A stretch of 64,000 bases of DNA from an uncultured delta proteobacterium. GTDB taxonomy: Bacteria; Desulfobacterota; Binatia; UBA9968. The position numbers and the translations under genes are program-made. How positions within the stretch are numbered: the stretch's first letter is position 1; each line of letters opens with the position of its first letter. The stretch lies in assembly GCA_963755715.1 (NCBI GenBank), contig CAVWLW010000064.1, positions 1-64,000 of the forward strand, in the 5' to 3' direction. Below the pieces are notes generated by a model, which worked only from the letters and a program-made list of their open reading frames with translations, searched no databases and was not told the DNA's origin. Of the stretch, positions 10,187 to 47,624 are shown piece after piece.

Positions 10187-10493
10187 TTTCAATTCCCCTT
10201 TCAGATTTTGCTGTAATTGGTCGAACCCTTGCCTGAAACCAATATTATTTAACCGTTGCTGTCGCCGCAGCAACAACGACCAATTCAGGCCGGCTCAGTT
10301 CAGCAACACCTTTAATAGCTGTTGCTTCATTCTGCCCCAGACGCATAACCATTGAGTCTACTGACCAGCGATATTGAGTTTCAAAAAATCTCGGAGGTGC
10401 TTTTTTTGTTTTATCTACAAGTTGTAAATTAATCCTTCTCGCAGGTATAGCCAATACCCTTGGTCAGGCTCTGGCACATGCTCGTGTCAACGT

Positions 10494-10640
10494 CCGCGGG
10501 TTGTCCTCGACAGTCTTCTTGTGCTGCGCGGCGGCGATGCGCCGCTATTTTTTTAGTGTCGTCAGCACGTCCAATTTGGGGATGAGTCGGCGTGGCCTGA
10601 TCGAGAGTTACAAAGGCGAGAACACGCTGATGATCGGAAT
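10494..10640 (-). pseudogene. Decayed duplicate of the amidohydrolase 3' end with an internal inversion
   Basis: 10494-10597 aligns with 12760-12864; 10597-10640 (LIESYKGENTLMIG on +) matches 12872-12915 inverted. Confidence 0.75.
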
Positions 10641-10727
10641 TCACCAGGCGTTAGAAAATTTACGCGGTTCCTAATAGAGCGTGTGAAGGCGGTTGCTTGC
10701 GCCGAACAACCGCCGCTTCCGTATCAT

Positions 10728-12413: not shown

Positions 12414-12738
12414 GGTTGAGTCTCCTCGAACGGTTTTCTTGTGGTGTGTATTATCTCGCGCCTGAACGCGCAAGACCCCGGCGGGCTGCTGATATCAATT
12501 CTGGAGCAGCGCGGTCAAGCGACGAAGGAGTCATTTTACTCCAGCCGATCGAATAGGTTTTGATATGGATGCGAGCGGATAATGATCGGGTGAGACAGTT
12601 TGCACATGCCAGTGGTCCGTTCTACTCGCGGTGGGAGACGACATTAAGAACACGGCGAGAGCGAAAAATCACGTATGATATCGGGTCGGACGCAGTACAC
12701 TAGCCGCCTTCTTAACGGTGATCAGATGTCTTAGTGGT

Positions 12739-13822
12739 TCACGCTAAACCGTAAAATGCCCGCGGATTGTCCTCGACGATCTTCTTGTGCTGCGCGGCGC
12801 TGATGCCGCCGCTGTTTTTCAAAGTCGTCAACGCATCCAACTCCGTGGAAGAGTCGGCGTGGCCGAAATCGGTGCCGATCATCAAAGTATTTTCGCCCAT
12901 GCAGCTTTGGATCAGATACGGCACGTCGTCGCCGATCTGGCAGGTGACAAAGATGCCGCAGCGCTCGAGCAGATCATCGGGCAGCCGATTGCCGACTTTG
13001 TCCAAGCGCCGGCGCAGCTCGTAGATCACCCACGGCACCCATGTTGCCGCGGTTTCGATGAAGCCGAAGCGGAGTTTGGGAAATTTCTGCGGGATGCCGC
13101 AATTGATGAGGCGGAACATCGCGCCGACGTTGAAAATTCGATATTGGTTGAAAAAGTCGCGGCTGCCGTCGGGATTGACCATCATGTCCACCGCCGCGGC
13201 GCTGCCGTTGGATTGGTGCAGGCCGATGCAGAAATTCATTTTCTCGGCTTGCTCGTACAAAGGAAAGAAATAGGGATCGCTGATCTGGCGCGCGCCTTCG
13301 AGCGGGCGCATGAAAACCCCGCAGCCGCCGTTCTCCTTGGCGAACTTCAATTGGTCGAGCGCGTCGGGCATGCTGAGCAGCGGCAAGTTCGCCATCCAAC
13401 GTAAGCGCCCCTTGCTCTGTTTCCACACATCCGCCATCCAGCGATTGTAAGCGCCGCACAACGCCACCTCGGTATCGGCGCGCTCGGTCACCTGGTCGAG
13501 AAAGATACTCGTGTAGAGAACCTGGATGTCGATCCCCAGCTCGTCCATATGCTTGATGCGCGCGCTCGACGTCGGCGAGATCGCGCGTCGCCATGTCGGT
13601 CGCCATATCGCGGCCGATCTCGGCGGATTTCTTGTCGAGATCGGCTTTGCTAAAAGTGAACCGGAACAGGCCGCGGATTTTGCCGTCGATCACCCAGTGC
13701 GCTTTTTGGTTGTCGTCCTCCGGCTTGAACAACTGAGGCCGAAACTTTTTTTCTGAAGGCAAGAGGTAATCCCACGTCAGCGGACTTTCAACGACATGCG
13801 CGTCAGCGTCTACCCATCCCAT
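12739..13822 (-). CDS. Amidohydrolase-2 family protein (frameshift ~13560)
   Basis: VDADAHVVE, MDELGIDIQVLY, IGLH, GFIETAATW, IGTDFGHAD. Confidence 0.88.
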
Positions 13823-29612: not shown

Positions 29613-30677
29613 CTAGCAGATCCGCGGCAACTGTTCACCAAACAACACGTCGACCACTCGCGTGCCGCCGATAGCGGTTTTCATCAGCACCATTGCCGGA
29701 GGGTCGGCGACCACTTCGCCGATCACCCGGGCTTCTTTCCCAAGCGGATGCGCGCGCATTTTTTGCAGCACTGCCGCGGCGTCTGCCTGATCGACGATCG
29801 CCAAAAGCTTGCCTTCGTTGGCGACATAGAGGGGATCGAGGCCGAGAATTTCGCAAGCGCCTTGCACTGACTCCCGCACCGGAATCTGACGCTCGTCGAT
29901 GACCATGCCGACGCGCGAGCTTGCGGCAAGCTCGTTGAGCGTCGTCGCCACGCCGCCGCGTGTCGGATCTCTCAGGCAATGGATTCGCTCGCTGGCCTCG
30001 ATCATTTCGGCGACCAGCGTGTGCAACGGCGCCGTGTCGCTTTCAATAGCGCTCTCGAACTCCAGGTTCTCGCGCCGCGACATGATCGCTATGCCGTGAT
30101 CTCCGACAGTGCCGCTGAGCAGAATCTTGTCGCCCGGCCGCGCCCGGTCAGCTGATATTCTCAACTTGCTATCGACCAAACCGATACCGGTGGTAGTAAT
30201 GAAGATCTTGTCACCCTTGCCGCGGTTGACCACTTTGGTATCGCCGGTGACCAGTTGCACGCCGCCGCAGCGCGCCGCCGCGCTCATCGAGCCGACGACG
30301 CGCTCCAGATCAGCCATCGCCAGTCCTTCTTCCAAAATAAACGCCGCCGCGATGTAAAGCGGTTTGGCTCCGCTCATGGCCAGATCGTTGATGGTACCGT
30401 TGATTGCCAAGTCGCCGATGTTGCCGCCCGGGAAAAAAATCGGCGTGACGACGAACGCGTCCGTGGTAAACGCCACCCGCGCTCCTTCGATCGGCAAGAC
30501 GGCCTGATCGTCGAGGCGGGAGAGAAACTCATTCTTGAACGCCGGCAAAAAGATCTTTTGAAGGAGTTCGGCGGAAAGCTTGCCGCCGCTGCCATGTCCG
30601 AGCACGATCTGTTGCTGATCGCGAATCGGAACAGGGCATACCGCGCCGACCAGATCTGCGCCTATCTCCTGGTCCAT
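29613..30677 (-). CDS. hypE: Hydrogenase maturation carbamoyl dehydratase
   Basis: HGSGG, TTDAFVV, GTINDLAM, DPTRGG, C-terminal PRIC. Confidence 0.97.
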   Translation of the reverse strand: MDQEIGADLVGAVCPVPIRDQQQIVLGHGSGGKLSAELLQKIFLPAFKNEFLSRLDDQAVLPIEGARVAFTTDAFVVTPIFFPGGNIGDLAINGTINDLAMSGAKPLYIAAAFILEEGLAMADLERVVGSMSAAARCGGVQLVTGDTKVVNRGKGDKIFITTTGIGLVDSKLRISADRARPGDKILLSGTVGDHGIAIMSRRENLEFESAIESDTAPLHTLVAEMIEASERIHCLRDPTRGGVATTLNELAASSRVGMVIDERQIPVRESVQGACEILGLDPLYVANEGKLLAIVDQADAAAVLQKMRAHPLGKEARVIGEVVADPPAMVLMKTAIGGTRVVDVLFGEQLPRIC

Positions 30678-31289
30678 TAAATAACGTCCTCCTCGCCCAT
30701 CGCGACGTGAATCAGATCCCAGAGAATGTGAAGCAAAGCGACGTGACATTCTTGAATGCGGTGAATGCTGAAGCTTGGCACGGTAAAAGAATACTCGGCA
30801 ACCTCGCGTAGCCGGCCACCGTCCTTACCGGAGAACGCGATGGTCAACAGCCCTTTCTTGCGCGCCGCCTGCAACGCATAAATCAAATTGGGCGATTGCC
30901 CGCTGGTGGAAATAGCCAGAGCCATGTCCCCCGGTTTGGCCCAGAGAGCAAGCTGGTCGACAAAAATCTTTGCATAGTCCTTGTCGTTGGAGATCGCGGT
31001 CAGCACCGGTATCTGGCTTACCAAATCGCGCGCCGGCAAAGCCCGGCGCTTGTCGATGATGGGATGGATGAATTCCACCGCCACATGTTGCGCGTCACAG
31101 GCGCTGCCGCCGTTGCCCATGACCCAGAGCTCGTGCCCCGCCTGGAATCGGCCAGCCATCTTTTCGCACAGCTCGGCAATTTGCTCGGCATACAAACGGA
31201 AAAATTTCTCTTTCACTTCGACGGACTCGCGGCACTTGCGCAGAACTTTCTCGCTCAGGGCGTGACCCGCTGCACGGGCGCCGTTGCCT

Positions 31290-31300
<11 letters not shown>
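30677..31300 (-). CDS. SIS-domain (GmhA-like) protein
   Basis: [29 protein letters not shown]. Confidence 0.88.
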
Positions 31301-32401
<1,101 letters not shown>

Positions 32402-32405
<4 letters not shown>

Positions 32406-32683
32406 GATGAAGTTCCTCTTCGAACTTCGTCATCTATCTGCGCGTCAGCAAGCTCGCTGAGTTGACCCATCTCTTCGAGCAAGCGGTAAGTGCGCGCCGC
32501 TTCCTCTTCATCCAACTTACTGATGGCGAAGCCGACATGGACGACGACGTAATCGCCGGCGACCGCCTCGGGGACATACTGCAAGCAGGCCTCGCGCACG
32601 ATCCCGCCGAACTGAACCTTGGCCATGCGCAGGCCCTGCGATTCATAGGCGTCGAGAATTTTACCGGGAATACCAAGACACAC
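32402..32683 (-). CDS. hypC: HypC/HupF chaperone (copy 2)
   Basis: [18 protein letters not shown]. Confidence 0.95.
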
Positions 32684-32684
32684 T

Positions 32685-34976
32685 TTACCGACCTCCCGCC
32701 ATGACGGCATTGGCGACCGCCGCCTGTCCCAGCGCGATACCGCCGTCGTTGTTGGGAACTTGCCGATTTAGATAAACTTCAAATGCGCTACTTCGCAATG
32801 CAGGAACGAGGCGCTCCAGCAGATAGCCGTTCTGAAATGTTCCGCCACTGAGACAGACGAGATTCAAGCCGTCGGTCTCGCGCAGCCGTCGGCATATTAC
32901 AACGATGACCGCGACGATAGTGTTATGAAACTTCGCAGCGATCGAGTTAACTGAAACTTTCATTTGAATGTCTAGCACGAGGCGTTCGATCGCGGGACGC
33001 AGATCAATTTCCCAAGGACTGCTGGCGCCGATCTCGAAAGGATAGCTCTCCGAGATTCCTTCGCGCACAGCCATTTCAAGTTCGATGGCTGCCTGTCCTT
33101 CGTAATTTACCTCATGGCGTAGACCCATTATCGAAGCGACCGCGTCGAACAGCCGTCCACAGGACGATGTCTGGACCGTGTTCAGCCCCCGTTGGATCAT
33201 CGACGTAACCATCTCGATTTTCTTTTCCGCAACTCGGTCCCAACCAGGAAGCCCTAAGAAAAGCGGATCTGCGCCCAGAGCGTCGCGCAGATAACTGAGC
33301 GCCATGCGCCAAGGCTCGCGAATCGCTCTATCGCCACCCGCCAGAGGGACACAGCGTAAGTGCGCCCGGCGCTCATAGCCGGCAAGCCTTGTTACGAGAA
33401 ATTCTCCGCCCCAAATCGTGCCGTCCCCGCCGTAGCCAAGACCGTCGAAGGCGACACCGATGACGGGACCGTTTAGGCCGTGCTCGGCCATGCAGCTTGC
33501 GATATGGGCATGATGGTGTTGCACGGCGATCTTGGTGAGTCCATGAATTCCGACGGCGTATTTGGTGGAGAGGTATTCGGGGTGGAGATCATGGGCGATC
33601 ACGGCGGGCTCGACGGCGAAGAGATTTTTGAAATGTGCAATGCCATCCACGAAAGACTTCAACGTCTCGTAGTTTTCCAGGTCGCCGATATGGTGGCTCA
33701 TGAAGGCATGGCGCTCTTTACCCAGGCAAAAGGTGTTCTTGAGATGAGCGCCGCAGGCGAGCACCGGTTGAACGAATGGCGCGCTCATGAAAATCGGCTG
33801 CGGCGCATAGCCGCGCGAGCGGCGGATGATCAATTCGCGCCGGTCGATCGTGCGTGCAACGGAATCGTCACAGCGCATGTGAATCTGCCGGTCGTGGACC
33901 AGGAAATAGTCGGCGATTTGTTCAAGCCGGCCAAGGGCATCGTCATCCCTGTATGCGATCGGCTCTTCACTCAAATTGCCGCTGGTCATCACCCATATCA
34001 TGTCCGAATCCGCAAGCAGCAGATGATGCAATGGGGTATAAGGCAACATAAAACCGAGTTGCCGTTGGCCGGGCGCGACTGCGTCGCCGATCGGAATGTC
34101 TTCATGTTTACGCAGGAGCACGATCGGTCGTTGCAGCGAAGACAACAGCCTCTCGTCTTCGAGCGCGACAATGCAGAACTTCCTCACCGCGTTCAAATCG
34201 CGCGCCATCAAAGCGAACGGCTTGTCCTCACGATGCTTCCGCGCTCTCAGCCGGCGCACGGCGTCATGATCGAGCGCGTTACATGCGAGGTGGTAACCGC
34301 CCAGACCTTTCACCGCGAGAATCGCGCCCTGGCTCAGTAATTGCGCGGCGGCAAAGACCGCATCAGGCTCGGCGCTCTCGCGACCTTGAAAATCGAGCAA
34401 CCGAACCCGCGGGCCACAGCGCGGACAAGCATTCGGCTGTGCATGAAAGCGACGATTGGCCGGATCGTGATATTCCCGCGCGCAATCGGCGCACATCTTA
34501 AAGCACTCCATGGTTGTGCGCTCGCGATCGTAGGGAACGTCCTTGATAATCGTGAAGCGCGGACCGCAGTTGGTACAATTTATAAATGGATAACGGTAGC
34601 GCCGGTCGCTTGGATCGAAGAGTTCCTTAAAGCAATCCTCGCAGGTCGGTGTGTCTGGAGACATCAAAACGTTCCGTTGCTCGTCGCCGTGGCTGGTGAC
34701 GATCTTAAACTCAGATTCGCCCGTGGGCGGGACAATCGAACAATCGATGTTTTCGATGCGGGCAAGAGGCGGCGGCGCTTCCGTCAACACCGCTAGAAAG
34801 CCATCCAGCGCCGCCTGCTCGCCTTCGAGCTCGATAGTTACGCCTGCTGTGTCATTGAGAACGAACCCCGCCAAACCGTTCTTGAGCGCCAACCCGTGAA
34901 CGAAGGGCCGAAAGCCTACTCCTTGCACGACGCCCGCGACGGTAATGTGCCGGCGCTCGGTCATGGCGATCCTCAT
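32685..34976 (-). CDS. hypF: Carbamoyltransferase
   Basis: VQGVGFRPF, CTNCGPR, FHAQPNACPRCGP, HHHAH, NDGGIALGQ; ATGA overlap with the upstream gene. Confidence 0.97.
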   Translation of the reverse strand: MRIAMTERRHITVAGVVQGVGFRPFVHGLALKNGLAGFVLNDTAGVTIELEGEQAALDGFLAVLTEAPPPLARIENIDCSIVPPTGESEFKIVTSHGDEQRNVLMSPDTPTCEDCFKELFDPSDRRYRYPFINCTNCGPRFTIIKDVPYDRERTTMECFKMCADCAREYHDPANRRFHAQPNACPRCGPRVRLLDFQGRESAEPDAVFAAAQLLSQGAILAVKGLGGYHLACNALDHDAVRRLRARKHREDKPFALMARDLNAVRKFCIVALEDERLLSSLQRPIVLLRKHEDIPIGDAVAPGQRQLGFMLPYTPLHHLLLADSDMIWVMTSGNLSEEPIAYRDDDALGRLEQIADYFLVHDRQIHMRCDDSVARTIDRRELIIRRSRGYAPQPIFMSAPFVQPVLACGAHLKNTFCLGKERHAFMSHHIGDLENYETLKSFVDGIAHFKNLFAVEPAVIAHDLHPEYLSTKYAVGIHGLTKIAVQHHHAHIASCMAEHGLNGPVIGVAFDGLGYGGDGTIWGGEFLVTRLAGYERRAHLRCVPLAGGDRAIREPWRMALSYLRDALGADPLFLGLPGWDRVAEKKIEMVTSMIQRGLNTVQTSSCGRLFDAVASIMGLRHEVNYEGQAAIELEMAVREGISESYPFEIGASSPWEIDLRPAIERLVLDIQMKVSVNSIAAKFHNTIVAVIVVICRRLRETDGLNLVCLSGGTFQNGYLLERLVPALRSSAFEVYLNRQVPNNDGGIALGQAAVANAVMAGGR

Positions 34977-35245
34977 CCTCCGGGATCCGCCATTTCCGCC
35001 AGCGGCAGCACTTGATACGTCGAGAAATTGAAAACCGGCGACATCGCGAGCAACCGATCCAACTCTTCGTTCGACTCGACATTGTAGATCCAGGCGCCGC
35101 CGTGACTGCCGACGACGTGATAGCGGCACTCGAGCTTGCCTTCGGCTTCAAGCTTCTTGCCGTACTTGGATTGATCCATGACCGCGGCCATCATTTGCGG
35201 ACTGATTCGGCTCACTTCCAGATGCCAGAGCACGAGAAACTTCAT
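34973..35245 (-). CDS. Small muconolactone-isomerase/DUF3303-like alpha+beta protein
   Basis: MKFLV...LEAEGKL...IYNVESNEELDRLLAMSP...VLPL pattern. Confidence 0.7.
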   Translation of the reverse strand: MKFLVLWHLEVSRISPQMMAAVMDQSKYGKKLEAEGKLECRYHVVGSHGGAWIYNVESNEELDRLLAMSPVFNFSTYQVLPLAEMADPGG

Positions 35246-36688: not shown

Positions 36689-38041
36689 TCAGCGCTCCTT
36701 CAACGGTTCCACTTCGTCCGGATAAAAGTAAAGATATCTGCCGTGCCAGCGGTGCAGCTCCGTTGCCGGATCGTCAGCCAGCGCGACCGCGAGATATTGC
36801 TTATCGTCCACATCAGAAAAGACCGCCTCGACCGTCGCGACTCTGCCCTGAAGAAACAAGTCCTGAGCGTCGGCGCGGCGCAATCCCGGTCGCAATCGCA
36901 CGCGGCTGCCCTTCGCCACGGCAACTCCGTCGATCTGGACGTGATCGGTCTCCGGCGACACCGAGTCGTCGGCGGCAGGATTCCACCACGGCACGGTATC
37001 CGTTTGGTTTTCCGGCTTCGCCGCCGACTTCCGCAGGTAACGGACCGCGCCGTGCAAACGTTCGAGGACCTCACCTGGCAAGCTATCGACGCGGTCGATG
37101 ATCGCCGCGGCGCGCGTGTCGGTGGCGCGCGCGGCGCTTTTCTCGTCGTCGGTCAAAGTCATCGTGCGCAGCGCGAGGATCTCGTCAATCTCCGTGGCGT
37201 CGTACATATCGCCGGGGCTTTCCGCCGCGACACAGGGATAATCGTAAAGAATAATCGGCGACGACAGCATCACGTCGCGCTCCCCTTCAGTGCCGACTAA
37301 AACCGGCCAGGTGTGAAGATTTTCGCAGGATGCAGTCGCGGCGCGGGCAAATTCGGGCGGATCGAGAAGCGACAGCAACGCGCCGTCGCGAACCGCTAAA
37401 ATAACATGCGCGCCGGCCAGCGCGTGGCGCAGGGCGCGCGCACGGTTATTTTCCGCTCCCGCCCAGGGCGTCCAATTTTCCACCCGAATGCGTAACTTGA
37501 TGAGACTTCCCCGCCTCTCGCCGCTGACGCGAATGACACCGCTGATCGGGAAACGCTCGCGCACCACGCGCCCGTTTACGATTCCGGATGCCGCCGTGAC
37601 GGCCTCGATGTCCCGGCCCGCAGGAACATCAAAGGGAAACACTTTTTCTGCGCGGCAAATCTCGCCGAGGTCGATTGCCGTTTGATCGATCTCCCGCTCG
37701 ACGCCCTCATCCCACGCGAATAGTTCCTGGCCTTCCACTTCGAGCCTGTCGACAGGGACGAATCCATCTGACGTTCCTGGCGCCGTCTGTTCGACGCTTC
37801 TCGCCTGAATCTGAAGAAACCTCAGGCGCAAATCGAACTCCGGTCGATCGCCGGGTTCGACGAGACACTCGGTCTGGGTCACCCACGGCTCGCCGGCGCC
37901 GTTCTCGCTGTAGTCGCGCGGCATGACCACACCGAACTGCCAGCGCAGCTGATTTTTCGTCGCACTGGCGCGGTAGGGGTAGAGCAAATAACCTTCGTAA
38001 AGCACCGCATTGGCGACTTGCTGAGCCATCTCGAATTTCAT
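36689..38041 (-). CDS. Conserved group 1h hydrogenase-associated protein
   Basis: AVLYEGYLLYPYR, SSPIILYDYP, DATEIDEIL, ADAQDLFL, GRYLYFYPDEV. Confidence 0.85.
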   Translation of the reverse strand: MKFEMAQQVANAVLYEGYLLYPYRASATKNQLRWQFGVVMPRDYSENGAGEPWVTQTECLVEPGDRPEFDLRLRFLQIQARSVEQTAPGTSDGFVPVDRLEVEGQELFAWDEGVEREIDQTAIDLGEICRAEKVFPFDVPAGRDIEAVTAASGIVNGRVVRERFPISGVIRVSGERRGSLIKLRIRVENWTPWAGAENNRARALRHALAGAHVILAVRDGALLSLLDPPEFARAATASCENLHTWPVLVGTEGERDVMLSSPIILYDYPCVAAESPGDMYDATEIDEILALRTMTLTDDEKSAARATDTRAAAIIDRVDSLPGEVLERLHGAVRYLRKSAAKPENQTDTVPWWNPAADDSVSPETDHVQIDGVAVAKGSRVRLRPGLRRADAQDLFLQGRVATVEAVFSDVDDKQYLAVALADDPATELHRWHGRYLYFYPDEVEPLKER

Positions 38042-38682
38042 CTTCGGTCCTTATCGACGGCCTCATTAAGCAGAGTTTCGATGGCATCGTCCCAGGTGAG
38101 CAGCGCGTGGCGCCCTTTAAAGCGATATAAAGCATCGAAGCTGTCGCGTCTGAGCCGGATCCATGCGCTGCCGGGAAAATAACGGTCCATCAAATCGCGC
38201 CACAACCGGACCGGCATTCGGTATTTCGCCTCTTTCTCCCAGGGCACCTGCTCGACGCTGAAGCCGAGTTGGCCGCGCGCGAAGATCGACCCGCTGAAAA
38301 GAAACAACAGCGGGACTTCCCCGTCCTCGAGCGCTTCCAAATACTTGGCGGCCACGACTTCGAAATCGTAGGTGCATGTAATCGGCAGGTCGATCACAGT
38401 CGTGCCTTCGAAACCCGGCACCATCAGCGACGCTTGCGTCCACAAAAGTGATCTAAGCGTACCACTCCAGCGATCCGGCGCGCCGAAAAGCTCGATCAGC
38501 AGATCTTCTTCATGATGCGAATAGCGGCGCTGCCGTGGCTCCACTTGGATCTGGCTGCGCAGCGCAATCGCGTGGATCCGCTCCCCCGAGCTCTCCGTGA
38601 TTTGCAGCCGAAACAGCAACGTCGGTATGACCGCATACGGCTCGACCCGGGCATCGATGATCGTGAAAGCAAGCTCGCTCAT
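38038..38682 (-). CDS. Group 1h accessory protein (DUF6084-like)
   Basis: IALRSQIQVEPRQRRY, CTYDFEV, FLFSGSIF, VPWEKEA. Confidence 0.8.
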   Translation of the reverse strand: MSELAFTIIDARVEPYAVIPTLLFRLQITESSGERIHAIALRSQIQVEPRQRRYSHHEEDLLIELFGAPDRWSGTLRSLLWTQASLMVPGFEGTTVIDLPITCTYDFEVVAAKYLEALEDGEVPLLFLFSGSIFARGQLGFSVEQVPWEKEAKYRMPVRLWRDLMDRYFPGSAWIRLRRDSFDALYRFKGRHALLTWDDAIETLLNEAVDKDRR

Positions 38683-39344
38683 GCGCTGATCCCCGCCTCC
38701 GCGCTGGTTTCGCCGCTGCGCACGCGCAGGTCGGCAAAAAAGCCGTCGATCTCATTCCAGGCATCTTCGCCGCCATCAAATCCCTTCCAGCACCGGCGGA
38801 TACGACCGACCAACTCGTAGCAGGCATCGATCGGAACGATGTAGCAGTCGAAGTTCTCGCGCCGCTTGAGATTGCGCACGAGCAGAGCCTCGACGTCCGC
38901 GCCGAGGGTTTCGAGCGCTGGATTCAGCTTGACCAATTCATCCCAGGTCTCCAGCGCAAGCAACGACTCGGTGGCGCCCGCCGGGCCCGGATAGAAGACC
39001 ACCATGCGGCCCAGCGATGAATTGAAAAAGAAAAATGCGATGCCGACCGGAATTTGCAAACTGTCCCATTGCGCGTCGGTTAGCACCAGCTCGGGAAGAT
39101 TGAGATAACGCGCCGGCACCGCCTTGAATTTCCCTGCCGCCGCGCCGTCGCGGGTAAAGAGCAAGTAACAGGGTCGGCACACACACATAAGGCTCCGGGT
39201 CTCGACGTTGACTACATGCGAATGCGGTTCGGCGATCTCGGCTCGGCAAAATTCGCAGGCACCGGCGGAGCGCGGCCGCGCGCGCGGTTCGACGAAACGT
39301 CTGAGCTTGGTAAGAGGCTGGCTATTCTCCATGCGGGCGCTCAC
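38679..39344 (-). CDS. Group 1h accessory protein (DUF5947-like)
   Basis: CEFC...H.H...CVCRPC, IPVGIAFF, YPGPAGATES, PIDACYELVG. Confidence 0.8.
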   Translation of the reverse strand: MSARMENSQPLTKLRRFVEPRARPRSAGACEFCRAEIAEPHSHVVNVETRSLMCVCRPCYLLFTRDGAAAGKFKAVPARYLNLPELVLTDAQWDSLQIPVGIAFFFFNSSLGRMVVFYPGPAGATESLLALETWDELVKLNPALETLGADVEALLVRNLKRRENFDCYIVPIDACYELVGRIRRCWKGFDGGEDAWNEIDGFFADLRVRSGETSAEAGISA

Positions 39345-39356
39345 GGTATCGGTTGC

Positions 39357-40244
39357 TCAAGACGATATCGCCGGAATGGCGATGCGAATTTCACTCTGCT
39401 GCGCGAGCAGCGGCAACGGCGCCATATGCAGATCGCCCCCGTCCGTGCATTGGCCGGCGCGCCGCACGTCGTAACGGCGCCCGCAGGTAGAACAGGTCAA
39501 AAAATTTCCCCGTAAGGAATTTTCGCGCAGCGCGACACCACAGGCTGGGCACGAATCCTGATACGCATAGAAAGTCTCGCCTACCCTGCAAACAAGGACG
39601 TTCATCCCGCCCAGTGCAGTGGCAGCGAGATTGCTATGAGCGAACTCAGGCAACTGGCCGAGCGCATGCCATTCTCCCGACGGAACACGACCTTCTTCCG
39701 TCTGCGCTGGATCGTTTTTAGAAATTTTATTTCCTGAAGAGGCGGCCGGCGCGACGTCGGTCGCGCCCTCGACTTCGATGCGTGCCACCTCGGGCGCGGC
39801 TTCTTCGATCGCCTTCTCGACCGCCAGCTTCATGGTGATCGTCGAAGATGGACAACCGTGGCAGCTTCCCTCCAAACGCAAATAGGCGACGCCATCGGCG
39901 ACGCGCACGAGCTTGACATCCCCGCCGTGCGAGCCCAGATAGGGACGGACGCGATCGAGGGCGCGCAGGATTCTCGTCTTCACATCCAGTGGATGCAAGT
40001 TGTGGAGCACCAGCAGGCTGCCCACGAGGTCATCTGAGCCGAGCCGATCCATAATTTCATCGGATCGGCCCGCTGCATCGACGATGCGCAGGACGCGGTC
40101 GAGCGCTCCGCCATATAATTCCATGAGCAGCCTAACCAACTCTTCGGCCCTTTCGCGCATGCGCGGATCCGCGACCACAGCAAATTCCTCGAGCAACCCA
40201 TCGATACGCTCGCCCACCGCGCGCAGATCCTTGGCCTTCGTCAT
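39357..40244 (-). CDS. NifU-domain plus Rieske-like Fe-S protein (HhyE-like)
   Basis: VRPYLGSHGGD, GSCHGCPSS; C-terminal CPAC...CSTC. Confidence 0.85.
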   Translation of the reverse strand: MTKAKDLRAVGERIDGLLEEFAVVADPRMRERAEELVRLLMELYGGALDRVLRIVDAAGRSDEIMDRLGSDDLVGSLLVLHNLHPLDVKTRILRALDRVRPYLGSHGGDVKLVRVADGVAYLRLEGSCHGCPSSTITMKLAVEKAIEEAAPEVARIEVEGATDVAPAASSGNKISKNDPAQTEEGRVPSGEWHALGQLPEFAHSNLAATALGGMNVLVCRVGETFYAYQDSCPACGVALRENSLRGNFLTCSTCGRRYDVRRAGQCTDGGDLHMAPLPLLAQQSEIRIAIPAISS

Positions 40245-40296
40245 TGGCGTGCCCTCGTAATGATTGCTGGTATCGGCCATCGACAGATGCCTTTGC

Positions 40297-42069
40297 TCAT
40301 CCCACTTGGTTGAGCAGCGTCGGCGAATGGCGTTTTTCCAGGACTTTGCCGTTGCCGAGATACATGTGAACGCCGCACGGCAGGCACGGATCGAAACTGC
40401 GCACGGTGCGCATGATATCGATGCCTTTGAATTTGTCTCCGGGTCCATTCTCTTCGAAAATCGGCGAGCCCTGCACCGCGTCTTCGTAAGGCCCGGGCGT
40501 GCCGTAGATGTCGCGCGGATTGCCGTTCCACGGCGTCGGCGGATAGGGGTGATAGTTGGCGATCTTACCGTCACGAATCACCATGTGATGGGAAAGCACG
40601 CCGCGCACCGCTTCGGTGAAGCCGCAGCCGATGGCATCTTTGGGAACCTTGAACGGCTCCCAGGTCTTGGTGTGTCCGGCGCGCACCTCTTTCAGTGCCT
40701 GTTCGACAAAATGCAGCGCCGCAGCGGCTGCGTAAGCTTGGAAATAGGTGCGCGCCCGGTCGCGCTCGATGGTATTGCTCCACTTGGGAATCTTCCATTC
40801 GAAACTGACCTCAGGCTTGGTCGCGGTCTTGGGCAGATTGAAGATCACGCTGGTCCCGGTCGCCTTCACGTAGCCGATATCAACCAGTCCGGCCAGCGCG
40901 GTGACCCACAAACGGGCGAGCGGTCCGCCGCCGGTATCGAGCGCGAGATGATCCTTGCCGTCGTACCAACGCGGCGACATCACCCAACTATACTTGTCGT
41001 CAAAGTCTCGTTTCTGCGGTTTTGGAATCGTGTGTTGATTCCAAGGGTGGTGCTCGTCCACCGGATTTCCTAGGGGATCGTTTTTGACGAATATTTCTTT
41101 GCCTTCCCAATTGTCGTAGTACGAATGGCCGAGCAGTATGCGGATACCGAGATTGATCTTGACCAGATCGGTGGTGAGCAGTTTGCCGTCGACCACCACC
41201 CCCGGGGTGACAAACATCTTGCGTCCCCAATCGGTCATATCGCGATAGTTGAAATTGCAATACTCCGGATCTTGCAAACTTCCCCAACAACCGAGCAGAA
41301 CCCGGCGCTCGCCGACTTTTTCGTATCCGGGCATGGCTTCGTAGAAGAAATCGAAAAGATCGTCATGCATCGGCACGACGCGCTTCATGAATTCTACGTA
41401 CCGCATCAAGCGCGTCAGATAGTCCGTGAACAACTGGATCGTCGCAACCGTGCCCACGCCGCCGGGATAGAGCGTCGACGGATGGACATGGCGCCCTTCC
41501 ATCAAACAAAACATTTCGCGGGTCATGCGGCTCATCTGCAGCGCTTCGCGGTAGAATTCGCCTTCCAACGGATTGAGCGACTTCATGATATCGCCGATGG
41601 TGCGATAACCATGGGCGCTCGCATGCGCGGCCTCGGTCTTGGCGGCCTTCTCCCAAACACCAGGATTGGTCTCGCGCACCATCCGTTCGCAGAAATCCAC
41701 GCCGACGAGGTTTTCCTGGAAGATGTTATGATCGAACATATATTCCGCCGCCTCGCCCAAGTTGACGATCCACTCGCCGAGATGCGGCGGCCTGACGCCA
41801 TAGGCCATATTCTGGGTATAGCAAGAGCAGGTGGCGTGATTATCGCCGCAGATGCCGCAGATCCGGCTGGTGATGAAATGCGCGTCGCGCGGATCCTTGC
41901 CTTTCATGAAAATGCTGTAGCCGCGAAAGATCGATGAAGTGCTGTGGCACTCGGCGACCGTGCGTTTGCCGAAGTCGATCTTGGTGTAAATACCCAGGCT
42001 GCCGACGATCCGAGTGATCGGATCCCACGCCATCTCAACGAGGTTGGAATTGGTTTGCGCCGTGGCCAT
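40297..42069 (-). CDS. hhyL: Group 1h [NiFe]-hydrogenase large subunit
   Basis: L1 motif TSRICGICGDNH; L2 motif SFDPCLPCGVH; WDPITRIVG. Confidence 0.97.
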   Translation of the reverse strand: MATAQTNSNLVEMAWDPITRIVGSLGIYTKIDFGKRTVAECHSTSSIFRGYSIFMKGKDPRDAHFITSRICGICGDNHATCSCYTQNMAYGVRPPHLGEWIVNLGEAAEYMFDHNIFQENLVGVDFCERMVRETNPGVWEKAAKTEAAHASAHGYRTIGDIMKSLNPLEGEFYREALQMSRMTREMFCLMEGRHVHPSTLYPGGVGTVATIQLFTDYLTRLMRYVEFMKRVVPMHDDLFDFFYEAMPGYEKVGERRVLLGCWGSLQDPEYCNFNYRDMTDWGRKMFVTPGVVVDGKLLTTDLVKINLGIRILLGHSYYDNWEGKEIFVKNDPLGNPVDEHHPWNQHTIPKPQKRDFDDKYSWVMSPRWYDGKDHLALDTGGGPLARLWVTALAGLVDIGYVKATGTSVIFNLPKTATKPEVSFEWKIPKWSNTIERDRARTYFQAYAAAAALHFVEQALKEVRAGHTKTWEPFKVPKDAIGCGFTEAVRGVLSHHMVIRDGKIANYHPYPPTPWNGNPRDIYGTPGPYEDAVQGSPIFEENGPGDKFKGIDIMRTVRSFDPCLPCGVHMYLGNGKVLEKRHSPTLLNQVG

Positions 42070-42147: not shown

Positions 42148-43212
42148 CTACCATGGTTTTCGGTAACCCGTCGTCAGATCTTCTCCGCGGTGGCGCCACT
42201 TGGGTTCCTTGTCGAGGGTCCTCTCCGTGATGCCGCGCAAATTTCGGACAAGCTTTCCGTAGACTCCGCTGATTCCTGCGGACACTTTGCTGCCCGGCGG
42301 TTCATCCATGAAAGGCATGAACTTGTCCGGAAAGCCGGGCATCGTGCAGCCGATGCAAATACCGCCGACGTTCGGGCAACCGCCGATTCCGGCCATCCAG
42401 CCGCGCTTGGGCACATTGCATTTGACCACCGGTCCCCAGCAGCCGATTTTTACCAGGCATTTTGGCGAGCCATATTCAGTGGTGAAATCGCCTTGTTCAT
42501 AATATCCCGCGCGATCGCAGCCCTCGTGCACGGTCTGGCCGAAAAGCCATTTGGGTCGCAGATTTTCGTCGAGCGGGATCATCGGCGCCTGGCCGGTCGC
42601 CTGGTACAGCAGATAAAGAATCGTCTCCGACAAATTGTCGGGTTGGATCGGGCAGCCGGGCACGCAAACGATGGGAATGCCGGCGCGCGACTTCCAGTTC
42701 CAGCCCAAATAATCCGGCACGCCCATGGCGCCCGTCGGGTTGCCGGCCATGGCGTGGATGCCGCCATAGGTTGCGCAGGTTCCCACGGCGAGGACCGCCA
42801 GCGCCTTTGGCGTCAAGCGGTCGAGCCACTCACTGGTCGTCATCGGCTGGCCGGTTTCAAAATTGTTTCCGAAGCCGCACCAATAGCCTTCTTTCTTGAT
42901 GGCTTCGTTCGGAATCGATCCTTCCACGACGAGAACGAAGGGATCGAGCTCACCCTTTTCAGCTTTGTAGAACCACTTGATAAAGGTGTCGGCGCCGGGC
43001 TCGCCCATGCCTCCCGGGCCGCATTCAAAATCGATCAGCGGCCAATGCACGGCAACCTTCGGTAGACCCGGCAGAGCGCCGAGGACGATCTCCTCGATGC
43101 TCGGTTGCATGGCGGCGGTGAGCGCCACCGAGTCGCCATCGCAGCTCAAGCCGGCGTTGATCCACAACACATGAACTAAAGCATCTTCAGGTTTTGTCGC
43201 GGCCATGGGCAT
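42148..43212 (-). CDS. hhyS: Group 1h [NiFe]-hydrogenase small subunit
   Basis: SCDGDS (3Cys1Asp proximal cluster), GTCA, PGCP, HEGCDR, CLVKIGC, CPNVGGICIGC; no Tat signal; RBS AAGGAGG. Confidence 0.96.
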   Translation of the reverse strand: MPMAATKPEDALVHVLWINAGLSCDGDSVALTAAMQPSIEEIVLGALPGLPKVAVHWPLIDFECGPGGMGEPGADTFIKWFYKAEKGELDPFVLVVEGSIPNEAIKKEGYWCGFGNNFETGQPMTTSEWLDRLTPKALAVLAVGTCATYGGIHAMAGNPTGAMGVPDYLGWNWKSRAGIPIVCVPGCPIQPDNLSETILYLLYQATGQAPMIPLDENLRPKWLFGQTVHEGCDRAGYYEQGDFTTEYGSPKCLVKIGCWGPVVKCNVPKRGWMAGIGGCPNVGGICIGCTMPGFPDKFMPFMDEPPGSKVSAGISGVYGKLVRNLRGITERTLDKEPKWRHRGEDLTTGYRKPW

Positions 43213-43373
43213 CGACCTCCTTATTTTCGTGAATGATCCGTCTGCCCCTCGACTCTCCAAACCGGGCAGAGATCAGCGAAATTCGTTTCTGCCAAGGTGA
43301 ATAGTCGAGACCAGGCGCACCGGCAATACGGAGTACGTCCGTTTCTTCTATGAGAGATTAGCCGACTGTGGCC

Positions 43374-43388
43374 TAGGGGATTCCCCTA
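43374..43388. promoter_or_regulatory. Perfect inverted repeat, candidate response-regulator box
   Basis: TAGGGGA-T-TCCCCTA, ~160 nt upstream of hhyS. Confidence 0.55.
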
Positions 43389-43479
43389 TGAACTTATCGT
43401 GAAGTGTGACTGCCGGTTCGGCGAGAGAGCGAAAGCCGGAGGATATGAGATCTCGTTCGGCGCGAACGGCGCGATGGGA

Positions 43480-44163
43480 TTACGTGGATTTTTCCCGCTG
43501 CAGCCATTGAATTGCGTGCTGCACAAGCTCACTGGCGTCGCTCAGCGTCATCTTTTCTTTGATGTGTTCGCGGTACGACTCGACAGTCTTTACGCTCAAG
43601 CGCAGCTCCTCAGCGATGCGCCGAGTCCCATGACCCTGACCGATCAGTCGAAAGACTTCCAGTTCGCGGTCACTGAGCCGATCGATGGAAAATTTCTGCG
43701 CTGTACCCGGCGCGCCGACGAATTGCTGCAGCATCTTGTTGGCCATCCGCTTACTAAGATAGATCTCCCCGCTCAAGACTCGGCGCAGCGCGAGCAGCAC
43801 ATTCTCGGTGGCTTCTTGTTTCATGATGAAGCCGCGGGCGCCGGCCCGTAGCGCCCGCGGCGCATAGATCGATTCATCGTGGATGGAAAGAACTAAAACC
43901 GGCAAGGCCGGCATGCGGATCTTGAGGTTCTTGATCAATTCGATACCATCGGCGCCCTTCAACGAAATATCGGCAAGGGCGATGTCAGGTTTCAGCGTTT
44001 GCATGGCTTTGAGCGCTTCGTAGATATCTTCCGCGGTGCCGCAAACGGTCAGATCCGGCTCGCGGTTGATCAGCTGCGTGAGACCTTCTCGCACAATCGG
44101 ATGGTCGTCGATGACGAAGACCGTGCGCTTGCTCTTCACGGAAAGTTTTCGCTCAGCAGCCAA
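43480..44163 (-). CDS. NarL/LuxR-family response regulator
   Basis: VIDDHPIVREG, ADISL, MKQ, LSDRELEV...LSVKTVESYR. Confidence 0.95.
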   Translation of the reverse strand: MAAERKLSVKSKRTVFVIDDHPIVREGLTQLINREPDLTVCGTAEDIYEALKAMQTLKPDIALADISLKGADGIELIKNLKIRMPALPVLVLSIHDESIYAPRALRAGARGFIMKQEATENVLLALRRVLSGEIYLSKRMANKMLQQFVGAPGTAQKFSIDRLSDRELEVFRLIGQGHGTRRIAEELRLSVKTVESYREHIKEKMTLSDASELVQHAIQWLQREKST

Positions 44164-44174
44164 ATCACCCTCTT

Positions 44175-45566
44175 TTACTCGTTACCGTTTAGAGGAAGCA
44201 CGCAAGTAACCATCGTTCCGCCGTTCGGATTCTTCTGAATCTTTAGCGATGCGCCTATCATGTTGGCGCGGTAATTCATAATGCGTAGCCCCATACCTTC
44301 TTTGTGGTCAGGCACATCCGGAAAACCCACTCCGTCGTCATAGATGCTTAGGGCAACAGTACCGCCCCGGTGACTCAGATCAATAACGACCTGTCGGGAG
44401 TGACCGTGCTTGACGGCATTCGTCACCGCCTCTTGAGCGATTCGATACAGGTGCGTGGCTAAATCGATGTCGCGAATCGGGATGGCATCTTCATCGCGAA
44501 AAAGACACGAAACGTTGAACAATTCTTCGACGTCGGATGCCAGGTGTCGAAGCGCGGAGACAAACCCTTGGGATCCCGATGGCACCGGGAGAAGTCCGCG
44601 CGCGAGTTCGCGGGTCTGGTTGATCGCTTCATTGACGAGCCGAGCAATCTTAGCCGCGTCGTTGGCCTCTGCGGACAACTTCTCTGTAAGCTTGTCTGCC
44701 AAAACCTTGCTCAGGAAAGCAACGCCGGTGAGGTGCTGTCCCAATCCGTCGTGCAAATCCTGCGCAATGCGTCTTTTTTCCCGCTCGCTGATCTCGAGAA
44801 TGGATTTCTCCAAACGCTTGCGCTCAATCATTTCACTTTTCAGGATATCGTTGGCGATGCCCAGTTCGACGGTTCGCGCTTGCACGCGTATTTCCAACTC
44901 GTGTCGCGCCCCCAGTAGATCTTCCTGCACGCGCTTGCGCTCGCCAATCTCCAACTGCAGCATCTTATTGGTCAAAGCGAGTTCCTTGGTCCGCTCCTCA
45001 ACTCGCTTTTCCAAGTCGGCGCGACTGTTTTGCAGCTCCTCTTCGGCCTTTTTGAGCTCGGTGATATCGAAAGCTATGCCGTGAACGAACCAGGGATGGC
45101 CGTCTTCGGCGCGCACCATCTTCACTTCGCAATGAAACCAGACCGTGTGCCCGTCGCGGGCTAGGATCCGATAGATAGAGCGCAGCGGCTCGCCCGACAA
45201 AACCATCTGCGCGGTTTCGATATTCCACCGCTCTTTGTCACCGGGATGGATTTGGCGATACCAGCGGATGGGATCATCGAGCCACTCGGCCTGGGAGAAC
45301 CCCAAGGCGGCTTCGATGTGCGGGCTAACGTAAGCTTCGCTGATGCCTCGATCGAGAAAAATCATGAACACGACCGCCGGCACCTGCTCGACGAGCGTCC
45401 TATACCGCGCCTCGACGTCCGGCAGTCGCCGATCGTCGCCATTGTCCGGCTCACTGCCGACGGTGGATGACTTGCCATTGGCCTCGAAAAAAACGCTAGC
45501 CAGTTCCTGGATAACCCTTTCCGCGTCACTCAGACTGATTGACTTTTCGTCGCCGGCTTCGATCAC
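44175..45566 (-). CDS. Cytoplasmic PAS sensor histidine kinase (HisKA_3)
   Basis: PAS domain (YVSP..IHPGD..DITELK), coiled coil, RIAQDLHDGLGQ, QEAVTNAVKH, DDGVG, GMGL; no TM helix. Confidence 0.93.
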   Translation of the reverse strand: MIEAGDEKSISLSDAERVIQELASVFFEANGKSSTVGSEPDNGDDRRLPDVEARYRTLVEQVPAVVFMIFLDRGISEAYVSPHIEAALGFSQAEWLDDPIRWYRQIHPGDKERWNIETAQMVLSGEPLRSIYRILARDGHTVWFHCEVKMVRAEDGHPWFVHGIAFDITELKKAEEELQNSRADLEKRVEERTKELALTNKMLQLEIGERKRVQEDLLGARHELEIRVQARTVELGIANDILKSEMIERKRLEKSILEISEREKRRIAQDLHDGLGQHLTGVAFLSKVLADKLTEKLSAEANDAAKIARLVNEAINQTRELARGLLPVPSGSQGFVSALRHLASDVEELFNVSCLFRDEDAIPIRDIDLATHLYRIAQEAVTNAVKHGHSRQVVIDLSHRGGTVALSIYDDGVGFPDVPDHKEGMGLRIMNYRANMIGASLKIQKNPNGGTMVTCVLPLNGNE

Positions 45567-45615
45567 GTAACTTTGCCTTCGTTACCGTTTATTATTTCGC
45601 CGGCGGCTCGCCCGT

Positions 45616-46650
45616 TCAAGGTGTTGCTTTGCCGCGCCGGTCGGGCTCTTTGTTGAGTGAAGCTTGCGTGAAGCTGCGCAGCGCGCGAATGGTTTTCCCG
45701 TAGGTCATTACGGCGGTGGTCGAGAGAATCGAGCCCGGAGGTTGATCCATGAACGGCATGAACTTGTCCGGAAATCCCGGCATCGTGCAGCCGATACAAA
45801 TGCCGCCCACGCTCGGGCAGCCGCCCACGCCATTTACCCAACCGCGTTTTCCGACGTTGCACTGCACGACCGGTCCCCAACAGCCGAGCTTTACGATGCA
45901 CTGGTTCGAACCGTGTTCACCGGCGAACTCCCCCTGTTCATAATAACCGCCGCGATTGCATCCTTCGTGAACCGTTTGGCCAAATAGCCATGTGGGTCGT
46001 AACGCGTCGTCGAGAGGAATCATCGGCGCGCTGCCGGCTGCTTGATATAAGAGGTAGAGCAAAGTTTCCATAAAATTGTCCGGAAGAACCGGACAGCCAG
46101 GCACACAAACGATCGGAATGTCAGCCGCGGATTTCCATTGCCAACCCAAGTAATCAGCCAGCCCCATGGCACCCGTCGGATTCCCTTCCATCGCATGGAT
46201 ACCGCCATAGGTAGCGCATGTCCCCGCCGCAATCACCGCCCAGGCATTGGGCGCGAGCCGATTAATCCACTCACAAGTCGTGAGAGGTTGCCCAGTAACT
46301 TTGTCGGTTCCTAGTGCCGCCCAATAACCCTCGTCCTTGTTCTTTTCGTTGGGGATTGATCCCTCAACGACGAGAATGAAAGGCGCGAGATTGCCTTCGG
46401 CGGCGCGGTGAAACGGTTGCAAGAAATCATCTCCGTTTTCATAGGAGAGAAAGGGATTATGAAAATTGACTTTGGGAATACCGGGAAGAGCTCCGAGCAA
46501 AATATCTTCAAGACTCGGTTGCGTTGCCGCCGTGATGGCGATGGTATCTCCGTCGCACCCGAGACCGGCCGTGATCCAGAGAATATCGATCTCCCGGATA
46601 GATAGAGACGCTATAGATGGGATAGTATTTTTTGCGGCAAGATTCTCCAT
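45616..46650 (-). CDS. Second group 1h-type hydrogenase small subunit (stand-alone paralog)
   Basis: GCDGDT, GTCA, PGCP, HEGCNR, CIVKLGC, CPSVGGICIGC; shorter C-terminal tail than HhyS. Confidence 0.93.
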   Translation of the reverse strand: MENLAAKNTIPSIASLSIREIDILWITAGLGCDGDTIAITAATQPSLEDILLGALPGIPKVNFHNPFLSYENGDDFLQPFHRAAEGNLAPFILVVEGSIPNEKNKDEGYWAALGTDKVTGQPLTTCEWINRLAPNAWAVIAAGTCATYGGIHAMEGNPTGAMGLADYLGWQWKSAADIPIVCVPGCPVLPDNFMETLLYLLYQAAGSAPMIPLDDALRPTWLFGQTVHEGCNRGGYYEQGEFAGEHGSNQCIVKLGCWGPVVQCNVGKRGWVNGVGGCPSVGGICIGCTMPGFPDKFMPFMDQPPGSILSTTAVMTYGKTIRALRSFTQASLNKEPDRRGKATP

Positions 46651-46795
46651 TCTCTGACTCTCGCCGATACCCAGATGCGCCGGGATGGACTAGGTCACCC
46701 TGCGACTTCGGAGAGCGATTCTTTCACTTGACGCCGCGCCGCCAAATAGCGATATCAAGAGGAACAAAACATTAAGATGCTCAGTTCATCACTCC

Positions 46796-47624
46796 CTAGT
46801 CGTTCGCGTGGCGGGCGAACTCCGCCGAGTTTTCGTTGGTGATCTGCAGGCGAAAGCCGCTCGGCTCTCTGAAGTACGTGCCCAATTGCTCCGGGCGGCG
46901 ACCTTCGCGCTCGCCGTGGTCGTCGCGCTCCTCGATGCCGGCCGCATGGAGCTTGTCCACGATCGCGTGGAAATTGTCATCGGTGACGTTGAAAGCAAAA
47001 TGGCGCCCGCGGTAAGTAGTTTTGGTCACCTCGCTAAGCTCACTCACCTGATTCAGCACCACGCATTGCCCCGAGGGCACGGTCACGGCGACGAATCCAT
47101 CCTGCTTCTCTTTCACCGTGCAATTTATAAATTTTTTGTAGAAATCTACGCTCGCATCCAAGTCCGTCGTGTCGAAGTGCAGATGATCCAGCCGGGTTTT
47201 GCTGAGGCCACTCGCTTTGGTGATCTCGATGAAGTTGCCCTCCGAGTCCTGAAAGACCAGCCCTTGCTTCCAAAAACAACCCAAGCCTGGTTCGCGCTCG
47301 ATATCGCGCGCGAATGAGCATTCGCGTCGAATCTTATCGGCCATCGCGTCATATTGGCCCTCCGGCACTTGAAAAGAATGACGCGGGTAAGAGTTGACGT
47401 TGTCGCGCTTGGGCAGCGTCGTTTTTCCTTGAGAAAAAAGTCCGACGTGATTTTCGCCCAGCTTCATGAAGATGCGCGTCATGTTGGGCGCGTTTTGAGT
47501 TTTCAAAGTGTACGCTCCCAAGACCTCGCTGTAGAATTTTTCCGCCCGAGTCCGGATCCATCACCGCGATCACAAAATGGTCGAGATGATGAACATCACC
47601 GTTGGCTTTCAAGTTTGCACCCAT
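46796..47624 (-). CDS. Two-domain VOC/glyoxalase-family protein (frameshift ~47545)
   Basis: HLDHFVIAV, RHSF, DSEGNFIEI, LDHLHF, RHFAF, EPSGFRLQI. Confidence 0.82.

Follow-up and report, generated by a model that had tools for sequence, protein, structure and literature searches.

The window, as we call the whole stretch of DNA analysed here, comprises 64,000 nucleotides (positions 1 to 64,000 of contig CAVWLW010000064.1, forward strand) from the assembly GCA_963755715.1 of an uncultured delta proteobacterium. Its minus strand carries the genes of a group 1h [NiFe] hydrogenase (hhyS, hhyL and accessory genes), preceded by three co-oriented genes that are the subject of this report: a paralog of the hydrogenase small subunit (PAR), a soluble histidine kinase (KIN) and a response regulator (REG). 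In the direction of transcription the order is PAR, KIN, REG, an intergenic stretch, hhyS, hhyL and the accessory genes. The individual features are listed below.

45616..46650, minus strand: PAR, group 1h small-subunit paralog without the tail, 344 aa (Pfam PF01058 and PF14720)
44175..45566, minus strand: KIN, soluble histidine kinase, 463 aa (Pfam PAS_3, HisKA_3 and HATPase_c)
45465-45533, minus strand: N-terminal helix of KIN, conserved in 56 orthologs
about 45066-45416, minus strand: PAS_3 domain of KIN, residues 78-165 (Pfam), conserved in 56 orthologs
44586-44780, minus strand: HisKA_3 domain of KIN, residues 263-327 (Pfam)
44187-44459, minus strand: HATPase_c domain of KIN, residues 370-460 (Pfam)
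43480..44163, minus strand: REG, response regulator of the NarL/FixJ type, 227 aa (Pfam Response_reg and GerE, the latter a helix-turn-helix)
43374..43388, no strand: candidate REG operator, palindrome TAGGGGAATCCCCTA with 6-nt arms and a 3-nt spacer (motif match)
42148..43212, minus strand: HhyS, canonical small subunit with the LTTGY tail, 354 aa (Pfam; start and ribosome-binding site read)
40297..42069, minus strand: HhyL, [NiFe] large subunit, 590 aa (PF00374; the sole such locus in the genome)
36689..40280, minus strand: accessory genes of the group 1h locus (Pfam; related loci keep the same order)
39357 to about 40280, minus strand: NifU-Rieske protein (Pfam)
38679-39344, minus strand: DUF5947 protein (Pfam)
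38038-38682, minus strand: DUF6084 protein (Pfam)
36689-38041, minus strand: 450-aa open reading frame (ORF) at the downstream end of the accessory set

The tight run of PAR, KIN and REG upstream of hhySL had been pointed out in a first-pass annotation, made by a model from the letters alone, and it is real: 49 nt separate the PAR stop from the KIN start and 11 nt the KIN stop from the REG start, and the starts of PAR and hhyS lie 3,438 bp apart. Position 43374, from which that annotation let the finding begin, is not the end of a gene; it is the edge of the palindrome, located 92 nt downstream of the REG stop. PAR does lack an adjacent large subunit, as had been noticed, since KIN comes next and the only large subunit of the genome stands beside HhyS. 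The whole genome (G000; 7.4 Mb, 76 contigs, 93.6% complete) codes for one large and two small subunits.

HhyS, used as the query, matches HofK of the actinobacterial-type hydrogenase of Cupriavidus necator (PDB 5AA5) with E = 1.4e-165, and the match covers the tail. PAR shares its two Pfam domains and its Cys/His/Asp pattern with HhyS and HofK. It is 65% identical to HhyS of the window (216/330) and 72-76% identical to the HhyL-adjacent copies of related loci. Unlike HhyS and HofK, PAR is not encoded directly upstream of a large subunit, has a more conserved C-terminal helix and lacks the ...KWRH...LTTGY tail: HhyS ends in ...KWRHRGEDLTTGYRKPW and PAR in ...EPDRRGKATP. For hhyS an upstream start at 43260 was considered and set aside, the ATG at 43212 behind AAGGAGG being the most likely one. 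A Pfam search of KIN revealed no domains besides PAS_3, HisKA_3 and HATPase_c, and with its HisKA_3 transmitter and receiver/GerE regulator the KIN-REG pair corresponds to a two-component system of the NarL/FixJ type. None of the five proteins compared with NCBIfam had a model above cut-off; the best models for REG were of the NarL, MctR and UvrY types, each below it.

We then asked how widely this arrangement occurs. A scan with PAR, using one genome per species, returned 635 matched stretches, of which 631 encode relatives. From the best 80 we obtained 72 loci, which are nearly all from metagenome-assembled genomes (MAGs) of Acidobacteriota with a few from Planctomycetota and Verrucomicrobiota, and the proteins of the window were placed on them by tblastn. 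The 72 loci and the window make up 73 sources. A small-subunit gene directly followed by a kinase gene is referred to as K-type, and an HhyL-adjacent one as L-type. The K-type arrangement is found in 62 of the 73 sources, so the linkage between PAR and the kinase, for which a synteny survey had been suggested, is conserved.

As many as 46 of the 62 K-type sources have the whole order PAR-KIN-REG...hhyS-hhyL. Three Blastocatellia loci (L010, L038 and L043) retain PAR-KIN and hhySL with a more divergent regulator, only about 32% identical to REG, ahead of hhySL. Two sources have REG and no same-strand hhyL downstream (in one of them, L056, hhySL is divergent), five have neither REG nor hhySL despite room for both (L025, L037, L042, L044 and L058), and six are too short for the downstream order to be judged. 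In most loci KIN is followed by a REG ortholog (58-67% identical), and the pair of a HisKA_3 kinase and a receiver/GerE regulator with at least 45% identity to REG occurs in 51 of the 62 kinase-linked sources. As for sources outside the K-type, four have canonical hhyS alone (L054, L057, L073 and L075), five are cut by a contig end (L027, L063, L067, L070 and L072, with REG just upstream of hhyS in three), one has the kinase on the opposite strand (L053) and in one the K copy is frameshifted (L064). PAR-KIN is found apart from hhySL in seven sources (L008, L025, L037, L042, L044, L053 and L058), and six of these seven genomes have a large subunit elsewhere. Many frameshifts, false fusions and split genes occur in the long-read MAG loci L032, L031, L049, L020 and L064 as well as in the proteins P0305 and P0310, and evidence for fusions from such sources needs care.

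Phylogenetic analysis separates the two types of small subunit. In a quick tree (131 rows) 60 K rows and two contig-end rows form one clade with a support of 97 in the Shimodaira-Hasegawa-like approximate likelihood ratio test (SH-aLRT). A careful tree (76 rows) was sampled from 28 sources with both copies, 11 special loci and 8 outgroups; two garbled sequences, L032_K (593 aa) and L032_L (123 aa), were dropped from the trees. In the careful tree, the bootstrap of which had not fully settled, the corresponding clade has 38 rows and a support of 100/96. It consists of 34 K rows, one contig-end row and three others, namely the HhyL-adjacent copy of a Pirellulaceae locus (L054), the copy of genome G048 discussed below and the representative P0005. 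Its sister (96/90) is an acidobacterial HhyS clade (29 rows, 96/87). Both trees thus place the kinase-adjacent copies in a clade of their own, which had been proposed as a check. This K clade extends beyond Acidobacteriota to Planctomycetota, Verrucomicrobiota and the phylum of the window itself. PAR of the window belongs to the K core (97/87), although its exact position differs between the two trees, and HhyS of the window groups with the representative P0002 outside the acidobacterial HhyS clade (100/99). Since PAR lies inside the radiation of group 1h small subunits, calling the system convergent with known H2 sensors, as the first-pass annotation did, is to that extent fair.

Both copies are strongly constrained. 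At least 90% conservation is seen in 227 of 338 columns in K and in 252 in L; the same residue is conserved at this level in both clades in 187 of the 338 columns, and only 12 positions are fixed but different (K then L: T36S, I37V, A38S, I92V, N104I, W137L, C182N, G234A, Q263N, G267P, Q303E and S331T). For the 46 genomes with both copies the mean p-distance is 0.168 among K versus 0.121 among L, so that K evolves 1.38 times faster, and the two sets of distances correlate (r = 0.69). Inside one genome the K-L distance is 0.24-0.33. Taken together, the within-genome distances, the correlation and the conservation argue for an old duplication with co-inheritance of the two copies and constraint on both. 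The module is real, ancient and constrained.

The motifs and Fe-S ligands that had been listed for PAR are all kept. None of the positions C32, D33, C145, C186, H228, C231, C251, C257, C264, C278, C285 and C288 varies among the 56 aligned K copies; these 10 Cys, 1 His and 1 Asp make up the full set of Fe-S ligands, with the clusters presumably assigned as in the paper on 5AA5. The two types differ most clearly at the C-terminus. Of the 55 L copies, 53 have the LTTGY tail (L[TA][TS]GY) and the other two are garbled; none of the 62 K copies has it, the window PAR being no different in this respect. HofK and the distant representatives P0002 and P0003 carry the tail as well, and its absence from K is consequently a loss. 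The C-terminal helix PPGSLLSSxAVxTYGRAIHALRRFTQASLNKEPSWR is better conserved in K than in L, with L308, T316 and F327 conserved in K and variable in L. Past the conserved ...NKEPSWR the K sequences are short and variable.

The partner of PAR is variable in all but its N-terminal part. KIN orthologs range from 380 to 833 aa. Common to them are one PAS_3 domain and, at the N-terminus, the helix AExxLxxLAxVF; across 56 sequences 28 positions of this shared part never vary and about 50 hardly vary. Most of them continue with one or two additional PAS domains and HisKA_3, and a NarL-type regulator comes next. KIN of the window is a minimal form without the second PAS domain found in most orthologs. 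In L025 and L037 the kinase has the architecture PAS_3-GAF-PAS-HisKA, and the next gene codes for a receiver-HD_5 protein of the HD-GYP type; these PAR-kinase-HD-GYP stretches (L025 11039-14717 and L037 11094-14746) are located away from hhySL, which lies elsewhere in the genome. Their domain composition suggests output to cyclic di-GMP signalling instead of transcription. The kinases of L044, L053 and L058 are of the HisKA type, L042 has a receiver-GGDEF-EAL gene nearby and G048 has an HWE-type kinase. The pairing of PAR with PAS_3 thus survives changes of transmitter domain, regulator type and genomic place. A tail-less small subunit and a PAS_3 domain that persist together while the output is exchanged form a pattern expected of a sensor input and its reader.

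Fused forms were sought among 54 longer homologs, and two were apparently clean. In P0271 (761 aa, 3 member sequences) a tail-less small subunit is fused with the N-helix motif, PAS_3 and an HWE-type kinase. The partial sequence P0284, from a Thermoleophilaceae MAG, combines PAS domains and HisKA with a small subunit of 54% identity. The list of homologs also has many small-large and HypE-small 'fusions', probably artefacts of read-through, and frameshifts have visibly garbled P0305 and P0310. An apparent fusion in L032 (593 aa) was rejected as a frameshift artefact, as the kinase match is in another frame and hhyS of this locus is also broken. In a complex prediction PAR and the N-terminus of KIN scored 0.26 against a mark of 0.32, in a run made without controls; this score weighs neither in favour of binding nor against it. 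On the whole, it is highly likely that PAR and the kinase work together.

The intergenic stretch between REG and hhyS contains a palindrome with the consensus ATCRGGGAWTCCCYGAT, and in the window the site lies about 170 nt upstream of the hhyS ATG. The sequence GGAATCCC is present in 31 of 44 REG-hhyS spacers versus at most 6 in shuffles. Related loci totalling 1.35 Mb contain the pattern RGGGWWWCCCY 49 times; 39 of the occurrences are within 600 bp upstream of HhyL-adjacent hhyS, and four more lie upstream of truncated or frameshifted hhyS copies. Upstream of PAR the palindrome core is found in 3 of 62 sources, among them L056, where PAR and hhyS share their upstream regions. The window site TAGGGGAATCCCCTA is the sole RGGGWWWCCCY match in the 64 kb and the 7.4-Mb genome has no second copy when up to 1 mismatch is allowed. 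GerE-type dimers habitually bind palindromes. Considering this habit and the position of the site, we infer that REG binds the palindrome, and control of hhySL by REG through it appears probable.

Other upstream signals are less distinct. GTAGAATACGC was observed in about 15 of 62 PAR upstream regions (last 300 nt) versus at most 7 in shuffles (8-mers), and may represent the -10 region of a promoter belonging to the cassette. Within 42900-47000 neither a promoter scan (3 versus 1.8 +/- 1.4 in shuffles) nor a terminator scan (8 versus 4.5 +/- 2.2) rose above the shuffled background.

From these data we propose that the group 1h operon is controlled by a signalling cassette made up of PAR, KIN and REG, with PAR as the input and HhyL as a shared large subunit, an explanation to which, taken whole, we assign a probability of about 0.5. 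PAR is a complete Fe-S small subunit in which the ancestral LTTGY tail has been lost and a more constrained C-terminal helix gained. A small share of HhyL, the sole large subunit, would pair with PAR instead of HhyS and give rise to a low-abundance sensing hydrogenase. Oxidation of H2 would set the redox state of the Fe-S chain in PAR, the N-terminal helix and PAS_3 domain of KIN would read this state, and KIN would set the phosphorylation state of REG. REG would then bind the palindrome upstream of hhyS and turn hhySL and the accessory genes up or down. The separate parts of this scheme are not equally firm. Judging from gene order and conservation, PAR is probably the input of a switch controlling the hydrogenase. 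That it pairs with HhyL and senses H2 falls, in our estimate, slightly short of an even chance. The broader view, in which HhyL serves both HhyS for energy and PAR as a trace-H2 sensor with the affinity of the enzyme, and in which the input module is portable across phyla with varied outputs, is more tentative still. The first-pass annotation had likewise suggested a sensor assembled from group 1h parts. The comparative side of that suggestion is supported by the clade, the linkage, the purifying selection and the candidate operator ahead of hhyS, while its biochemical side stands at the odds just given.

A relative of the window locus bears directly on the pairing of PAR with HhyL. Genome G048, 100% complete and from the same class as the organism of the window, has a single small subunit, which is tail-less, branches at the base of the K clade and is encoded directly before HhyL. 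This gene arrangement indicates that a tail-less small subunit can pair with HhyL. The G048 locus also carries DUF5947, a homolog of the 450-aa ORF and hyp-like ORFs. Its cluster (L078, G048:C31, 2357-12995) includes a PAS-PAS_3-HWE-type kinase at 8899-10335 that shares the N-terminal helix motif and, at 10332-12995, a large hybrid protein containing a receiver. Expression data offer a hint in the same direction. According to the available portion of a study of two Acidobacteria, hhyL transcripts were present in exponential phase and hhyS was undetected (PMC8027828), which might leave HhyL free for PAR.

Several observations weigh against the proposed explanation. Since the tail-less subunit of G048 is the sole partner of HhyL, loss of the tail alone does not mark a non-catalytic sensor. 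In G007, a Verrucomicrobiae MAG with PAR-KIN and of unknown completeness, no large subunit was detected. The AlphaFold2 model of KIN residues 1-200 is a confident one (predicted local distance difference test score 85.7), and a Foldseek search with the N-terminal model against PDB found generic PAS, LOV and FixL folds only, with no clue to a cofactor. The fusions lend weak support, as so many of those listed are probably read-through artefacts. In the three Blastocatellia loci with the divergent regulator the GGGGAATCCCC palindrome was not found upstream of hhyS, and another operator may be used there. No expression could be detected for the hhyS homolog in Edaphobacter aggregans, according to the part of the study at hand (PMC8027828). 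Finally, the group 1h genes of G411, a member of Pyrinomonadaceae, include only one small subunit, and PAR is absent, which means that the module is dispensable.

The explanation that competes best is that PAR acts without any large subunit, as a stand-alone Fe-S sensor of redox state or O2 (a 'redox wire', in the words of the first-pass annotation) that informs the PAS_3 kinase of oxygen or of the condition of the electron-transport chain, so that control of hhy would be redox-driven and not H2-driven. PAR indeed has no large-subunit gene of its own, PAR-KIN stands apart from hhySL in seven sources, and in G007 the pair occurs with no detectable large subunit; moreover, group 1h enzymes are described as starvation-induced, not H2-induced, in the accessible text of PMC8027828. 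We nevertheless regard this possibility as unlikely. HhyL is kept elsewhere in six of the seven 'separated' genomes, and the basal member of the K clade, that of G048, is a normal partner of HhyL. Small subunits are also usually unstable without their large subunit. With 187 of 338 columns common to both clades and only 12 fixed differences, loss of the large protein interface is hard to reconcile with the alignment.

Somewhat less likely again is that PAR represents an alternative catalytic small subunit, that is, part of an isoenzyme with another oligomeric state or electron acceptor, the adjoining two-component genes being ordinary regulators. This would agree with the retention of all Fe-S ligands and with G048, where the tail-less type is the only small subunit and sits in the hydrogenase locus. 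However, the gene for PAR precedes the regulatory genes, ending 49 nt ahead of the kinase, and does not stand among the structural genes; the pairing of PAR with PAS_3 outlasts changes of transmitter, regulator and location, even far from hhySL; and fused forms exist. That PAR is a recent or decaying hhyS duplicate under relaxed selection and without a function of its own, an outcome the first-pass annotation had allowed for, has a negligible chance of being right: PAR is a paralog, and the K copy is broken in L064 and in pieces in G010 (assemblies that are frameshifted elsewhere too), but the separate clade spans several phyla, the K-L distances within genomes exceed the means within either clade, and purifying selection is strong, with 227 of 338 columns conserved at 90% or more.

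The additional gene itself is not new, contrary to the description of the system as undescribed. Giguere 2020 (PMC8027828), in the portion available, reports a further hhyS copy some 3,600 bp upstream in three cultured Acidobacteria, namely Acidobacteriaceae bacterium KBS 83, E. aggregans and Pyrinomonas methylaliphatogenes, as well as expression of this homolog in KBS 83. As in the window, a second hhyS copy lies upstream and there is one large subunit, so this is very probably the same module; the window differs in its non-acidobacterial host. The available sections of the paper do not mention a kinase, a regulator or an operator beside the extra copy. The corresponding part of Eichorst 2018 gives one large subunit per strain and mentions no paralog. 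Our literature search, which did not extend to SI-2 of PMC8027828 or to Greening 2015, found no function assigned to the extra hhyS. Public databases name proteins of the PAR type 'hydrogenase small subunit', 'hypothetical protein' or, wrongly, 'HypE'. What is new here is the non-acidobacterial host, the operator, the swapped outputs and the relative with a tail-less sole small subunit.

The closest functional analogy is with the group 2b regulatory hydrogenases, HoxBC-HoxJ-HoxA of C. necator and HupUV-HupT-HupR. In these, likewise, a small subunit is encoded together with a soluble PAS kinase and a response regulator, and the regulator controls the genes of an energy-conserving uptake hydrogenase, according to the consulted part of PMC10073562. 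KIN shares with the group 2b kinase the N-terminal PAS domain on a soluble protein, and in both systems it is at its C-terminus that the small subunit departs from the catalytic form. HoxB has a conserved C-terminal extension that docks the kinase HoxJ. PAR, in contrast, has no conserved extension and has lost a conserved tail instead. The two systems differ in other respects, too. Group 2b has its own large subunit (HoxC or HupV), whereas there is one PF00374 locus in G000. The lineage of PAR belongs to the group 1h radiation and not to group 2b, as judged from a tree without named group 2b sequences. The group 2b regulator is of the NtrC/sigma-54 type, while REG is of the NarL/GerE type and KIN has HisKA_3. 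Also unlike the group 2b pathway, the outputs of the PAR module are interchangeable.

Oxidation of atmospheric H2 by group 1h enzymes is described as the main biological H2 sink in soils, with Acidobacteria as abundant carriers, in the available text of PMC8027828. Our literature search found no account of how Acidobacteria turn this enzyme on. The cassette offers a concrete set of regulators (input protein, kinase, regulator and operator) present in cultured strains. If PAR does share HhyL, it would constitute a new design of gas sensor, in which only the electron-transfer subunit of a working enzyme is swapped. If the broader view holds too, PAR with HhyL would be the first sensor of H2 at atmospheric levels and also the first regulatory hydrogenase that lacks its own large subunit. 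With its interchangeable outputs the module would be a natural component of H2 biosensors.

The host of the window is not acidobacterial: its rpoB is closest to that of a MAG labelled 'Deltaproteobacteria bacterium' (76%) and to Cystobacter (72%). Across 401 genomes of its phylum the N-terminus of KIN had a strong match only in G000 itself (306 bits), the next being G048 with 185 bits, and the sole sampled genome of the same family has no hydrogenase. For these reasons the locus was probably acquired. PAR, in the mostly acidobacterial K clade, has other nearest relatives than HhyS, and the cassette may differ in origin from hhySL. An acidobacterial donor was considered and set aside; the quick tree nests PAR among Acidobacteriaceae and the careful tree puts it at the base of the K core, and in view of this disagreement we name no donor.

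The window stretch is present nearly whole in 14 soil DNA runs from nine studies, one of them possibly its source. Contigs from RNA libraries (three studies, low depth) lie on PAR, KIN and REG with 0-6 differences, and one of them spans the KIN-REG junction; they give neither a level nor a transcript, gaps between them carry no meaning, and they are a weak hint of expression. Two neighbouring regions complete the picture of the locus. Directly upstream of PAR, on the minus strand at 46796-47521, is a gene for a 241-aa protein of the glyoxalase/dioxygenase superfamily, which has no match in related loci and thus lies outside the conserved module. Downstream of the hydrogenase genes, at 29613-35129 on the minus strand, HypE-, SIS/GmhA-, HypD- and HypF-like ORFs were recognized by eye from their translations.

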